Shown in pieces: positions 21,486 to 34,869 of a stretch of 64,000 nt of DNA. Position numbers and translations under genes: made by a program. The notes under the pieces were generated by a model. The model was not told the origin of the DNA, made no database searches, and saw only the letters and a list, made by a program, of their open reading frames with translations. Each line of letters begins with the position of its first letter. The stretch's first letter is position 1. Origin of the DNA: Chloroflexota bacterium (GTDB lineage: Bacteria > Chloroflexota > Dehalococcoidia > Lucifugimonadales > Australimonadaceae); contig VXQP01000084.1 in the NCBI GenBank assembly GCA_009838965.1, positions 15,819 through 79,818 of the forward strand, read 5' to 3'.

Positions 21486-22797
21486 CGCGCCGGACGGCTA
21501 CATCCTCGGCAACCTCCTCCTCTTCGGACGGCTGCTCCGGCGGCTCGGCCTCGACGTGCACGTCGGGCGGATGCTGGATGCCATCCGCGTGCTGGAGGAC
21601 ATCGGCCTCGAACGGCGGGGCGACGTGCGCGCCGCGCTGCGGACGCTGCTCGTGCACCGCAGGGACGACCTCCCGTTGTTCGACGAGGCGTTCGACGTCT
21701 TCTGGCGCCAGCGCAAGGACAGCACCTCGACGATGGATCTGCGCTCGATGGGTGAGCAGCGCCGCTACCGCAGGCCGTCCGCCGGGCCGCCGTCGCCGGG
21801 CCGCGAGCCGGACGACTCCGCCGAACCCGCCGACCCGGACGAGGGCTTCGACCGCGTCGACCTCACCCGCACGTTCAGCGCGCGGGAGGTGCTGCGCACG
21901 CGGGACTTCGCGGAGTTCACGCCGGAGGAGATGCTGGAGGCGCGGCAACTGATGGCGTCGCTGCAGTGGGACCCCGGCCTCAGACGCACGCGGCGCAAGG
22001 AGCCAGGCAGAGGCCATGGGCTGGACGTGCGCAGGACGCTGCGGCACAACGCACGATTCGGCGGCGAGCTCGTGCGACTGGAGACGCGACGCCGCAAGGA
22101 GAAGCCGCGCAGGCTGGTGGTGGTCTGCGACGTGAGCGGCTCCATGGAGCGGTACACGCGGATGCTGCTCCACTTCATCCACAGCCTCTACGCGGGCCTG
22201 GACAACCGGATCGAGGCATTCCTCTTCGCCACGCGGCTCACGCGCATCACGAAGCACCTGGGGCAGCGCGACATCGACCGCGCCGTTTCAGAGGTCGCAA
22301 AGGCAGTGCCGGACTGGTCGGGCGGGACGCGCATCGGCGACGTGCTCAAGGAGTTCAACTTCCGCTGGGCGCGGCGCACGCTCGGCTGGGGCTCCATCGT
22401 CCTCATCGTGTCGGACGGGTGGGACCACGGCGAGCCAGAGTTGCTGAGCCGGGAGATGGCGCGGCTGCAGCGCAGCTGCAACCGGCTGATATGGCTGAAT
22501 CCTCTGGCGGGCAACGAGGACTACGAGCCGCTGACCGTAGGGATGCAGGCTGCCGCGCCGTACATCGACGACCTGCTGCCGGTGAACAACCTCGCCGCGC
22601 TGTTCGACCTCGCCGACCACTTGAACAGCCTGTCGCAGAGCCGTCCGGTGCGCCGGCAGCAGACGTTGCAAACCACGGAGGAGGAAGCACCAATCGTCGC
22701 GGCGTCCGCCCCGCAGCAGCGCTCATGGCACGCGGGCGCGAACCCGACGTTCCGCCACCCGTTGTGGGGTCGCGGGGAGCCGCGGAACGGCGCGTAA
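21478..22797 (+). CDS. coxE: VWA domain protein (CoxE-like)
   Basis: GTG start overlapping coxD by 8 nt. CoxE-type N-terminus (LLFGRLLRRLGLDV...LPLFDEAFDVFW) and a C-terminal VWA domain with MIDAS VVVCDVSGSM. Confidence 0.82.
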   Translation: MADAPDGYILGNLLLFGRLLRRLGLDVHVGRMLDAIRVLEDIGLERRGDVRAALRTLLVHRRDDLPLFDEAFDVFWRQRKDSTSTMDLRSMGEQRRYRRPSAGPPSPGREPDDSAEPADPDEGFDRVDLTRTFSAREVLRTRDFAEFTPEEMLEARQLMASLQWDPGLRRTRRKEPGRGHGLDVRRTLRHNARFGGELVRLETRRRKEKPRRLVVVCDVSGSMERYTRMLLHFIHSLYAGLDNRIEAFLFATRLTRITKHLGQRDIDRAVSEVAKAVPDWSGGTRIGDVLKEFNFRWARRTLGWGSIVLIVSDGWDHGEPELLSREMARLQRSCNRLIWLNPLAGNEDYEPLTVGMQAAAPYIDDLLPVNNLAALFDLADHLNSLSQSRPVRRQQTLQTTEEEAPIVAASAPQQRSWHAGANPTFRHPLWGRGEPRNGA

Positions 22798-31753: not shown

Positions 31754-31830
31754 TGGTGGGCGGTAGAGGACTCGAACCTCTGGCCTCCGCGATGTCAACG
31801 CGACGCTCTAACCAACTGAGCTAACCGCCC
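31754..31830 (-). tRNA. tRNA-Val (anticodon GAC)
   Basis: Hand-folded cloverleaf: acceptor GGGCGGT/ACCGCCC, D arm GCTC-AGTTGGTTA-GAGC, anticodon stem TCGCG/CGCGG with loop TTGACAT, variable AGGCC, T arm AGAGG-TTCGAGT-CCTCT, discriminator A and an encoded CCA. A TGCTATACT (extended -10-like) sequence lies about 18 nt upstream. Confidence 0.93.
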
Positions 31831-31969
31831 CCGTCCACCGTCCACCGAGTATAGCATCCCCCTGCCGCGCCACGGGGCCGCCAACGGGCATCGTGCGGGT
31901 GTGCTACCATCGTCCGCGTTGTACGCCCCCCGGTACACCGCGGGTCGGCCATACGAACGGAGGAGGTGG

Positions 31970-32179
31970 ATGATGGTGGAAACAGCACTGCCCGCATGCC
32001 AGGCATGCAATGAAGGAGACCTCGTTCCGCTCTCGGACTTCGGTAGCCAGGGCGCGCCGATCCATTACAAGGCATGGGTCTGCACCAACCCCGACTGCGG
32101 CTTCAACCTCAAGATTCGCAACGGCGACGTCTACATCAACGAGCCCATCAACAACGGCGCCACAGCAGGCAGGCGCTAG
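31970..32179 (+). CDS. Small zinc-ribbon protein (69 aa)
   Basis: The ATG at 31970 has GGAGGAGG upstream. Two Cys pairs: CQAC...CTNPDC (MMVETALPACQACNEGDLVPLSDF...KAWVCTNPDCGFNLKI). Confidence 0.5.
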   Translation: MMVETALPACQACNEGDLVPLSDFGSQGAPIHYKAWVCTNPDCGFNLKIRNGDVYINEPINNGATAGRR

Positions 32180-32187
32180 CCCCTGCG

Positions 32188-32235
32188 CCGTCGTTCCTGC
32201 AAAGGCCCGCGCTTTAGCGCGCAACCTCGCAGCCC
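32188..32235 (+). repeat. 48-nt structured repeat, copy 1 (just after the zinc-ribbon ORF stop)
   Basis: ccgtcgttcctgcaaaggcccgcgctttagcgcgcaacctcgcagccc matches 34077-34124 at 45 of 48 positions. It contains the hairpin cgcgc-ttta-gcgcg flanked by ctgc...gcag. Confidence 0.8.
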
Positions 32236-32252
32236 GGTGTGCGTAGTGGTTG

Positions 32253-33098
32253 ATGATGAGTCCCTCTAAAGCCACGACTTCTCACGTCCCGCGCCCACGA
32301 CGCGTGTCCGCGACCGGCGTGGCGCTGCTCGTTGTGGGCGCGCTCCTGCTCGCCGCTGCCGCCGCCTATTACGCCTACGGTTTCTTCGCGGGACGCGATC
32401 TGGACCGCCTCGACGTCACCGTCACCGGGCCTGTCAGTGAGACTCTGCCGCGCGCTGCCGGCACGACGCATGAGGGGCCGTCCCCGGCCGCGCAGGAGCT
32501 CTATCCGGGCTCGCTCATGCCCGCCCGCCAGTGGGCCGACCCGCGGGGCGCGATCAATCTCGGCGTGCCCGATCTGGAAGGCTTCATCCCCCTCAGCAAC
32601 GAGGGGCAGCCCCACATCGCCGGGGTCGTCGGGAGGGCGGAGCGCATCGTCATCCCCCAACTCAACGTCGACGCGGAGGTGGAGGAGCTCAGCATCATCA
32701 ACCTCGCGTCGAGCGCAGCGTACGAGACTCCCGCGTTCACGGTCGGCCACATCCCCACGACACCGAACCCGGGCTCGGCGGGGAACGGTTGGTACTTCGG
32801 CCACCTGGAGAACCCGATACAGGGCGAGGGCAACGTCTTCCTGCGCCTGCCCGAGATCGCCGACCTGCTGCGCGATGGCGACGATGTGCATGTCATCCTC
32901 ATGTCGGGCGGGCGCGAGTACCTCTACCTCGTGAACGGCACGAGCACCACGCACGCCGACGACCTCGCGCTCTACCCGTCAGACGACGCCCGGATCTCGC
33001 TCGTCACCTGCTTCCCGCGCCTCAAGTACGACCAGCGCCTCATCGTCACCGCGCAGCTTGTCGCCTTCAGGGATGTCCCCGCGCCCGAAAGTACGTGA
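32253..33098 (+). CDS. Sortase family transpeptidase (membrane-anchored)
   Basis: N-terminal TM anchor (VALLVVGALLLAAAAAYYAY). The sortase core has IVIPQLNVDAEV, a His in TVGHIP, the catalytic-Cys motif ISLVTCFP and a downstream Arg (DQRLIV). Confidence 0.72.
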   Translation: MMSPSKATTSHVPRPRRVSATGVALLVVGALLLAAAAAYYAYGFFAGRDLDRLDVTVTGPVSETLPRAAGTTHEGPSPAAQELYPGSLMPARQWADPRGAINLGVPDLEGFIPLSNEGQPHIAGVVGRAERIVIPQLNVDAEVEELSIINLASSAAYETPAFTVGHIPTTPNPGSAGNGWYFGHLENPIQGEGNVFLRLPEIADLLRDGDDVHVILMSGGREYLYLVNGTSTTHADDLALYPSDDARISLVTCFPRLKYDQRLIVTAQLVAFRDVPAPEST

Positions 33099-33197
33099 AT
33101 CCGCCGCGCCCGAAAGCGCGTAGAATAGAAGTGATGGATTGCCCTGTCTGATCCCTTCCCTCTTGACGGGGGAAGGTTAGGATGGGGGTGAATTGGC

Positions 33198-34073
33198 ATG
33201 ACCACCCGCGCCACATCCGTATGGACACCCCTGCGAGCGGCTGCCGTTGCGCTGCTCGTGCTTGCGTTCGCCGCCTGCGAGAGCGCGACGCCCACCCCGG
33301 TGTCGGTGCCCACGAACACGCCGGTTCCAGCTCCGACCGACACCCCTGCCCCGGTTCCCGCCGACACGCCGACGCCGGCCCCCACCAACACCCCGACGCC
33401 CGTTCCGGAGCCGACCGACACCCCCGACCTGCTGGCTGGGGCAGGCACGGTCGAGGGTGTGCTTGCACAGCCGACTCCGACGCCGGAGCCGCAGCCGACC
33501 GACACGCCCACGCCGACACCAAGGCCGCGCCCAACGAACACCCCGACACCGAGGCCGCAACCTACCGACACGCCCACGCCCGTTCCCACAAACACCCCTA
33601 CTCCCGAACCTGCGCCTGCAAGCAGCTGGCGCACCGACATCGCCACCGGCTCTGGCATAGGCGACCGCGCAACCGACGCCCCGTTGACCCTCCCGGACGG
33701 CTCGACGGCCACCATCGAATCCACAGCCGGAGGCAAGACCGTCCTCCTCTACTTCTTCGCCACCTGGTGACCGAACTGCCGCGGCGAGGCTCGCACGCTG
33801 AACACCCTCTACGACAACTACAAGGACAATATTGAGTTCATCCACGTCGCCTTCAACGAGAACGCTTCCAGGCTGGACTCGTACGCCAAGGGAGAGGGCT
33901 ACGACTGGATCTTCGCCGAGGGCCCCGCGTCGCTCGTCCGCGACTACAACGTCCGCTCGCAGTCGTCGTGGGTCTCCATCGGGCGCGACGGCATCATCCT
34001 CAACAGGCGCGGCTACGGCTCGGACGGCGCGTCCTACTGGCGCGGCGTCCTGGACGCTCTCCGCGCCTCGTAA
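33198..34073 (+). CDS. TlpA/ResA-like thioredoxin-fold lipoprotein with in-frame TGA (33768-33770) at the first active-site position: predicted selenoprotein (W-U-P-N-C)
   Basis: Lipoprotein signal LLVLAFAAC, then a Pro/Thr-rich linker of about 120 aa, then KTVLLYFFATW-TGA-PNCRGEARTLNTLYDNYKDNIEFIHVAFNEN...GRDGIILN...LDALRAS-TAA. The frame stays open for 100 codons after the TGA. Only the joined product completes the thioredoxin fold. Confidence 0.7.
33781..33798 (+). promoter_or_regulatory. Candidate bacterial SECIS hairpin downstream of the TGA at 33768
   Basis: GCG-GCGA-[GGC]-UCGC-(A bulge)-CGC: 7 bp with one bulged A. The apical GG lies 21-22 nt from the U of UGA. The 23 nt at 33777-33799 are identical to 34579-34601 in the paralog. 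Confidence 0.5.
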
Positions 34074-34076
34074 TCC

Positions 34077-34124
34077 CCGTCGTTCCTGCGCAGGCCCGCG
34101 TTTTAGCGCGCAACCTCGCAGCCC
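34077..34124 (+). repeat. 48-nt structured repeat, copy 2 (just after the first selenoprotein-candidate stop)
   Basis: ccgtcgttcctgcgcaggcccgcgttttagcgcgcaacctcgcagccc begins 4 nt after the TAA at 34071-34073. It may act as a terminator or REP element. Confidence 0.8.
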
Positions 34125-34188
34125 ACCTATCCCTTGAGGGAGAGGTCACCGCGCAACAGTGCAGCGGGTGAGGGTGACCCCTCCCACA

Positions 34189-34217
34189 TTGACACCCCAC
34201 CCGCCCGCGCCTAGCCT
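34189..34217 (+). promoter_or_regulatory. Candidate promoter for the second thioredoxin-fold gene
   Basis: TTGACA (34189-34194), a 17-nt spacer, then TAGCCT (34212-34217), 20 nt upstream of the ATG at 34237. The -10 box is weak. Confidence 0.35.
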
Positions 34218-34236
34218 TACTCCGAGCAGTGAACGC

Positions 34237-34869
34237 ATGACCACACGCAGCGCATCCATATCGCGCCTCGTCAGGGCGGGGGCAGCCCTGCTCCTGCTGC
34301 TGGCGACGCTCGCTGCCTGCGGCGCCGACCCCACCGCGACACCGGTACCGCAACCGACCCCGACCCCCGAGCCTGAACCGACCGCCACGCCGAAGCCCGC
34401 CGCCTCGGATGGCATGGCCCCCGGAGGCTGGCGCACCGACGTCGCCGTCGGCTCCAACCACGGCGACCGTGCTTTCGATTCATCGATAGCCCTCCCGGAC
34501 GGCTCCACTGCCACCCTCGAATCGGCTGCCGGAGGCCGCGCCGTCCTCCTCTACTTCTTTGCCACGTGGTGACCGACCTGCCGCGGCGAGGCTCGCACGC
34601 TCGACCCCCTCTACGACGACTATAAGGACGATGTCGAGTTCGTCTTCGTCGCCTTCAACGAGAACGCTGCCCAACTGGACTCGTTCGCCAGGGGCGAGGG
34701 CTACGACTGGATCTTCGCTGAGGCTGAGCAGGGCACGCAGCAGGCATACAACATCCGCTCGCAGGCCAGATACGTCGGCATCGGGCGCGACGGCACCATC
34801 GTCGCCAGCAGCGGCGGCGGCTCCGGCAAGGACTGGTCCAGCATCCTCGACCAGCTCAGCGCCACGTAA
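34237..34869 (+). CDS. TlpA/ResA-like thioredoxin-fold lipoprotein, paralog 2, with in-frame TGA (34570-34572): predicted selenoprotein (W-U-P-T-C)
   Basis: MTTRSASISRLVRAGAALLLLLATLAAC (lipobox), a short Pro/Thr linker, then RAVLLYFFATW-TGA-PTCRGEARTLDPLYDDYKDDVEFVFVAFNEN...GRDGTIV...LDQLSAT-TAA (34867-34869). I place the start at the ATG at 34237 by homology with paralog 1. Confidence 0.7.
34583..34600 (+). promoter_or_regulatory. Candidate bacterial SECIS hairpin downstream of the TGA at 34570
   Basis: Same sequence, and the same offset from the UGA, as 33781-33798. Confidence 0.5.

Follow-up and report, generated by a model that had tools for sequence, protein, structure and literature searches.

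The stretch of DNA considered here, hereafter the window, comprises 64,000 nucleotides (64 kb) of contig VXQP01000084.1 from a Chloroflexota bacterium of the class Dehalococcoidia, marine and SAR202-like. It is a piece of ordinary chromosome, carrying rpoB/rpoC, cox-type dehydrogenase genes, TRAP and Trk transporters, and genes of glycolysis and of the nuo set. Two reading frames of the window, referred to as genes A and B, are arranged in tandem, and each of them contains an in-frame TGA codon followed by a short hairpin that could form in the mRNA. The TGA codons are considered below as candidate selenocysteine (Sec) codons and the hairpins as candidate selenocysteine insertion sequence (SECIS) elements. 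The corresponding features, with the type of evidence for each in brackets, are as follows:

33198-34073, forward strand: gene A, encoding a probable lipoprotein with a Redoxin/AhpC-TSA thioredoxin-fold domain (translation, Pfam)

33768-33770, forward strand: in-frame TGA of gene A, read as a Sec codon (aligned TGA in orthologues, TGC/TGT in remoter homologues)

33781-33798, forward strand: predicted SECIS hairpin A (RNAfold, covariation, covariance model, bacterial SECIS (bSECIS) criteria)

34237-34869, forward strand: gene B, encoding a paralogous probable lipoprotein with the same fold as gene A (translation, Pfam)

34570-34572, forward strand: in-frame TGA of gene B, read as a Sec codon (translation, alignment to homologues)

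34583-34600, forward strand: predicted SECIS hairpin B, which has the sequence of hairpin A, with loop 34590-34592 and bulged A34597 (RNAfold, covariance model)

In both genes the TGA occupies the first position of a CxxC redox motif, which would thereby become U-x-x-C. In translation, Sec would be residue 191 of the gene A product (motif FFATW-U-P-N-C) and residue 112 of the gene B product (motif FFATW-U-P-T-C). The reading frame and the domain run on past the TGA in both genes, and protein conservation reaches the C-terminus. Pfam Redoxin (PF08534, cut-off 26.6 bits) is matched by gene A with 42.8 bits (residues 155-268) and by gene B with 48.7 bits (residues 76-196), the TGA lying inside each match. 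The match to AhpC-TSA (PF00578; 39.6 bits for gene A and 38.6 bits for gene B, cut-off 26) also crosses the TGA. The N-termini comprise a signal peptide up to a Cys residue (LAFAAC / LAAC), followed by a Pro/Thr-rich linker and then by the thioredoxin-fold domain. Both products are probable lipoproteins, the lipobox having been recognized by inspection only, and each is probably a ResA/TlpA-like thiol-disulfide oxidoreductase anchored outside the membrane.

A protein search returned seven homologues, six of which are fragments ending exactly at ...LLYFFATW; the gene callers stopped at that TGA. Since TGA is the stop codon of 17 of the 41 confident window genes, there is no global reassignment of this codon.

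Genome and metagenome collections were scanned with a profile of the domain, which yielded 143 further loci and brought the total to 150 loci, plus the window. The aligned codon, at the first Cys position of CxxC, is TGA at 105 sites and TGC or TGT at 89 sites, the latter in remoter homologues. Nearly all of the TGA sites belong to Dehalococcoidia/SAR202 assemblies, and they extend down to about 32% amino-acid identity. Outside Chloroflexota, one TGA site each was found in Rokubacteria (locus L067, position 2609), Acidobacteriota (L064, 2648) and Krumholzibacteriia (L063, 1103); the stem sequences of these three are unrelated, yet the hairpin lies at an equal distance from the UGA. The motif of the acidobacterial locus is U-P-P-F instead of U-x-x-C, and it may represent another subfamily. 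The pattern expected of a Sec/Cys pair is present, namely an in-frame TGA over a conserved, functionally important Cys with coding conservation on both sides. As judged from these alignments, the distribution of TGA and Cys codons is the classic Sec/Cys signature of a selenoprotein family.

Each hairpin is 18 nt long and is situated 10 nt after the UGA, and its loop begins 17 nt after it. Hairpin A consists of the 5' arm GCGGCGA (33781-33787), the loop GGC (33788-33790) and the 3' arm UCGC-A-CGC (33791-33798), in which A33795 is bulged. This fold, proposed in an initial annotation of the DNA, was reproduced by RNAfold at -9.0 kcal/mol at both sites in a 43-nt context.

The same annotation had recommended looking for compensatory changes in orthologues, and these were found. 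With the U of the UGA numbered 0, the core pairs 16-26, 17-25 and 18-24 are intact in all 61 distinct sequences downstream of TGA. Pair 16-26 is CG in 46 of them, GC in 14 and GU in one; pair 17-25 is CG in 53, GC in six and UA in two; and pair 18-24 is GC in 58 and UA, UG or GU in one each. Position 26, as the third base of an Arg codon, is free to vary and yet always complements position 16, which is the middle base of a Gly codon (GGC) or an Ala codon (GCC). Double-sided changes occur in six of the seven pairs, synonymous positions among them. All 61 sequences possess the three core pairs and at least two of the three lower pairs, for which there are two registers: in the window type A27 is bulged, and in the N-A-E-V-P-H and N-A-E-F-R-H types there is no bulge. 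The same arrangement occurs in 3 of the 76 Cys homologues, in which pairing amounts to 21-50% per position. The median z-score of the local fold is -1.32 in Sec forms versus +0.33 in Cys forms (p = 1e-16).

In the 61-sequence alignment 89.5% of the cells are paired, versus 29-46% when the partners are slid by 1-3 columns, and the covariation score is 0.272 versus 0.04-0.07 under the same displacement. The observed paired fraction or covariation score was reached by 0 of 500 shuffles. The stem exists in at least 13 versions, whose distance from the UGA does not vary; examples are GCGGCGA/UCGC.CGC, GCGCCGA/UCGG.CGC, AUGCGGA/UCCGCAU, GUGCCUC/GAGGCA, GGUCUG/CAGACC, CGAGGG/CCCUCG and GGUCCG/CGGACC. 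Within the family the stem sequence is nearly constant, being CGCGCCGAGUUUCGGACGC or compensated variants of it even at 35-45% protein identity.

A covariance model was built from 48 sequences, with every R-G-E-A/S-R (window-type) sequence left out. With structure, it scored 60.1 bits at site A and 58.0 bits at site B, compared with 41.6 and 39.7 bits for a sequence-only model of the same alignment, so that structure adds about 18 bits. In the 64-kb window the model found only these two sites, the next best match reaching 13.8 bits.

One Cys homologue (L078, codon TGT at 1627, motif C-T-T-C-R-A-E-F-R-V-L) retains the hairpin in the form CGCGCCGAGUUCCGG. It looks like a recent replacement of Sec by Cys with a fossil SECIS, and is comparable to the remnant SECIS elements in Cys forms described earlier (PMC1794560, Fig. 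4).

The published consensus of bacterial SECIS elements comprises a loop of 3-9 nt, a stem of 4-16 bp, a G in one of the first two loop positions, mostly with G or U after it, a UGA-to-loop distance of 16-37 nt and a minimum free energy (MFE) that is at most -7.5 kcal/mol (PMC13188914). These criteria were applied in a strict re-implementation of our own. Both window sites pass: the loop is GGC, the bulged A divides the stem into an upper part of 4 bp and a lower part of 3 bp, the loop lies 17 nt from the UGA, and the energy is that given above. Strict passes number 51 of 65 among Sec sequences, every one with a spacing of 16-17 nt, and 11 of 76 among Cys homologues, with spacings scattered over 19-33 nt. 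The 14 Sec sequences that fail are those without four contiguous pairs under the loop; mostly they have an A.A closing mismatch and then a bulge, with the three core pairs and two or three lower pairs present. The loops of distinct orthologue sequences are GUU (26), GGC (13), GGU (5), AGUUG (3), GUC (2), GUA (1) and AGUUA (1).

In Escherichia coli fdhF, the minimal SECIS is a 17-nt upper stem-loop 11 nt after the UGA, in which SelB contacts the loop bases G23/U24 as well as a U that is bulged out on the 5' side. The window hairpins resemble this element as mini-hairpins of similar size (18 nt) and spacing (10 nt) whose loop starts with G and then G or U; they differ from it in having another stem sequence, a triloop rather than a larger loop and a bulged A on the 3' side, and the sequences are not similar. 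The bulged base, which the initial annotation had counted among the SECIS features, did not hold up as such: the A is not conserved among orthologues and is unlikely to be a SelB determinant here. With the consensus bacterial SECIS (Zhang & Gladyshev 2005, bSECISearch, as given in PMC13188914) the hairpins share the location in the coding region after the UGA, the small G-[G/U] loop, the spacing and the MFE. In contrast to that consensus, the stem sequence is unusually constant, the bulge, if any, is on the 3' side, and many orthologues are bulge-free. The SelD SECIS printed in PMC13326102 is like the window hairpins, with a GGC loop at positions 20-22 and a bulge on the 3' side.

The initial annotation had started from a block of sequence following both TGA codons that is identical in the two genes. 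The block is real and the codons flanking it do differ between the paralogs, but its length is 24 nt (33776-33799 = 34578-34601) and not 23; the string quoted in the annotation itself comprises 24 letters. Across 464 aligned columns the identity of the paralogs is 76%, and two further stretches, of 23 nt (33894-33916) and 22 nt (33845-33866), are the same in both. When mismatches were placed at random, a run of at least 23 nt arose in 16% of the trials. One further feature was delimited from sliding identity to the A-type and B-type orthologue groups and from run lengths:

about 33768-33920, forward strand: B-type tract in gene A, with its counterpart in gene B at 34570-34722

From codon -45 to -2 and from +47 to its end, gene A is nearest to A-type orthologues (nucleotide identity 0.74-0.97), and its resemblance to B-type genes is clearly lower downstream of codon +47. 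Between about codons 0 and +50 its identity is 0.78-0.98 to B-type and 0.50-0.81 to A-type genes. Gene A is thus a mosaic, with a tract of about 150 nt that apparently came from gene conversion. This tract holds the Sec codon, the SECIS, the active-site region and all three long identical runs, and therefore the identity of the paralogs is better explained by this conversion-like tract. Conversion reaching well beyond the block had been named in the initial annotation as a refutation of the SECIS hypothesis, and a tract of this kind is what was observed. As a sign of synonymous constraint, the identity is ruled out by the other runs of 22-23 nt, by P = 0.16 and by the mosaic. The conversion tract undercuts the identity argument but does not touch the evidence from orthologues; the significance of the hairpin comes from the orthologue comparison, and not from paralog identity or stability.

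The hairpin could be regarded as a by-product of the peptide motif (C-R-G/A-E-x-R-T-L), of GC-rich codon bias and of gene conversion, with no function at the RNA level. The conversion-like tract does explain the identity of the paralogs, other identical runs between them are as long, the peptide motif is a conserved one, and the stability of the hairpin is not above that of shuffled sequences. Codon choice argues for the opposite. When the window sequences were recoded synonymously in 5000 trials, with codons drawn from the window's own usage, all seven pairs survived in 61 and 43 of them (1.2% and 0.9%), that is, in about 1% of recodings. Synonymous codons are less diverse in the stem (GAG 82/82, ACG 74/77, CGC 59/64); for comparison, the GAG:GAA ratio in other Glu columns is 33:18 and 29:14. 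Rare codons sit where pairing needs them: the window hairpin uses the Ala codon GCU (6% of Ala codons in window genes) where the pairing base is required, and the P-S-C-N-A-E-L-R-T-L type (L008, L009, L014, L016 and others) twice uses the rare Leu codon UUA, the bases of which supply the pairs A13-U30, A12-U31 and U11-A32. TTA is one of the 1370 Leu codons in window genes.

Covariation, moreover, proceeds through synonymous third positions and also through amino-acid changes (e.g. Gly GGC/Arg CGC versus Ala GCC/Arg CGG), and further covarying combinations are GCG/CCG, UCG/AGG and GCU/CAG. Cys homologues with similar motifs lose the helix, apart from the 3 of 76 that keep it, and the unrelated stems of L067, L064 and L063 fold at an equal distance from the UGA. 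On the evidence of codon usage and covariation, the hairpin is not a by-product of the conserved peptide, and an origin without any RNA-level function appears highly improbable. It is barely conceivable that the TGA codons are true stops in genes that are split, decaying or encoding an N-terminal linker fragment only. Automatic gene calls do end at the TGA, which is a normal stop in this genome; against this stand the recurrence of the same TGA in the same motif at the 105 sites, down to the low identity given above, the intact, conserved, in-frame thioredoxin-fold domain that follows it and its coincidence with the catalytic Cys of homologues. Pseudogenes would keep neither the downstream frame nor a covarying hairpin. 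Recoding of the UGA without SelB and Sec is also very unlikely; it could take the form, for example, of hairpin-stimulated near-cognate read-through inserting Trp or Cys. Downstream hairpins can stimulate stop-codon read-through in general, and the Sec machinery was not found in the window. However, the recoded position is the redox-active Cys of CxxC, a classic Sec site, and both the geometry and the G-[G/U]-N loop agree with the consensus for SelB-type SECIS elements. In addition, the class is documented as selenoprotein-rich (PMC13326102), and a TGT homologue with the hairpin, such as L078, is expected after a recent change from Sec to Cys (cf. PMC1794560).

Several observations weigh against the interpretation of the TGA codons and hairpins as Sec codons and SECIS elements. 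Neither the 64-kb window nor the flanks of 56 loci yielded selA, selB, selD or tRNA-Sec, ARAGORN having been applied to the window and the 56 loci and Pfam to 40 window genes. Two ARAGORN predictions were considered as tRNA-Sec-like, a 94-nt 'tRNA-Arg(gcg)' (window 21606-21699) and a 93-nt 'tRNA-Cys(GCA)' (L054, 4164-4256); both lie in GC-rich sequence without Rfam support and are probably spurious. That this genome possesses the Sec machinery is assumed from literature at the level of the class. BSepDB contains Dehalococcoidia assemblies with 49 and 46 selenoproteins (PMC13326102), Chloroflexi were already known as Sec users (PMC1794560), and SelA occurs together with SelB in bins of sponge symbionts from various phyla (PMC5649159).

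Further points of this kind concern the RNA itself. Many of the 61 sequences are closely related, and the shuffle control therefore overstates their independence; RNAalifold alone keeps just the three core pairs. Folding with flanks, which the initial annotation had proposed as a check, bore out site A, where the hairpin is the minimum-energy fold in contexts of 43, 63 and 121 nt. At site B it is so only at 43 nt, and other folds win at 63 nt, where a different fold at -13.2 kcal/mol is favoured, and at 121 nt. The stability of the hairpins is not above that of dinucleotide shuffles (z +0.5 to +0.9), and stability alone is therefore uninformative in sequence of 66-79% GC. No Rfam family was matched in the window at the gathering score or in 33700-34700 at E <= 10, matches to mir-2188 and sR44 being at chance level only. 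This negative result carries little weight, because bacterial SECIS elements are too diverse for a single curated model (PMC12013277).

When these points are set against the evidence from orthologues, both TGA codons are still very probably Sec codons, and the 18-nt hairpins 10 nt downstream of them canonical bacterial SECIS elements. The SECIS assignment had already been made in the initial annotation, and it is sustained by the Sec/Cys pattern, covariation, synonymous recoding, the covariance model and the consensus, all of which are independent of paralog identity. It may be inferred that SelB binds these hairpins, that Sec is actually inserted and that selA, selB, selC and selD are present in this genome.

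According to the mechanism proposed, which is the one already established for bacteria, the hairpin in the coding mRNA would bind SelB carrying Sec-tRNA(Sec) as the ribosome nears the UGA. The hairpin bound by SelB would include the G-G/U-N triloop, which is some 20 nt away from the U of the UGA. This binding would place Sec-tRNA(Sec) at the A site, and the UGA would be read as Sec and not as a stop. The expected product would contain a U-x-x-C redox centre replacing CxxC.

Among named proteins, the sequence matches in NCBIfam and PDB are best for ResA, TlpA and DsbE. In common with the products of genes A and B, these have a CxxC-type site that follows a beta-strand with W at its end, and extracytoplasmic anchoring; they differ in that Sec here stands in place of the first Cys. 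Tryparedoxins are also among the best named relatives. The NCBIfam scores (ResA, 40.9 and 42.5 bits versus a cut-off of 170; TlpA, 28.9 versus 230) are far under the cut-offs, and genes A and B are therefore not orthologues of any named member. Prx-like and Trx-like UxxC selenoproteins (Prx-like 1, pfam00578; Prx-like 3, pfam08534) have in common with them the Pfam families, the UxxC motif, marine origin and many Cys homologues. Unlike those known proteins, genes A and B encode tandem probable lipoproteins with long Pro/Thr-rich linkers, located after a sortase gene in Dehalococcoidia. The UxxC families pfam00578 and pfam08534 are among the commonest marine selenoproteins (PMC2398784), and the 'Prx-like thiol:disulfide oxidoreductase' is a recognized family (PMC13188914).

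The gene directly upstream of gene A is the following:

32250-33098, forward strand: sortase gene, in conserved synteny with the Sec-redoxin gene or genes (Pfam Sortase)

A sortase homologue is present in 39 of the 65 loci with a TGA-type gene versus none of the 86 loci with Cys forms only, and the sortase and the selenoproteins may be functionally linked. The conserved order in this region (window 31754-34869; L001-L040) is tRNA-Val(GAC), a small open reading frame (31901-32179), the sortase gene and one or two Sec-redoxin genes. Each of genes A and B has GC-rich inverted repeats a short way upstream (33150-33195 and 34125-34190; e.g. GGGAGAGGTCACC ... GGTGACCCCTCCC). They do not belong to a dispersed repeat of the window and do not resemble terminators, nor did a convincing promoter or terminator pattern emerge. 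A scan of the window for further genes with in-frame TGA, based on GC content at third codon positions, missed even both known sites and is uninformative.

A more far-reaching proposal would combine several of these features. The hairpins could represent a lineage-specific SECIS class, the stem sequence of which, and not the loop alone, is read by the SelB of the clade; the Sec codon, SECIS and active site could form a conversion module of ~150 nt; and the pair of redoxins could be partners of the sortase, for example by keeping its catalytic Cys reduced. A stem-reading class is suggested because CGCGCCGAGUUUCGGACGC is near-invariant or fully compensated at the protein identities of 35-45% noted above. 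Taken as a whole, the proposal is rather unlikely.

For genome annotation, the interpretation as Sec codons with SECIS elements would mean that two genes called as truncated hypotheticals are full-length U-x-x-C selenoproteins, and that the same applies to about a hundred relatives in public Dehalococcoidia assemblies. Genes A and B may already be catalogued as selenoproteins, and the knowledge of the Sec insertion mechanism is unchanged by these findings. The tract in gene A would illustrate how an RNA signal in a coding region is kept intact through joint copying of both arms, and the Cys homologue retaining the hairpin would illustrate the transition from Sec to Cys. Models of bacterial SECIS elements are described in the literature as hard to define. 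The family provides a well-covarying alignment of such elements, with at least 13 stem versions at a fixed distance from the UGA, which could be used to train or test SECIS models.

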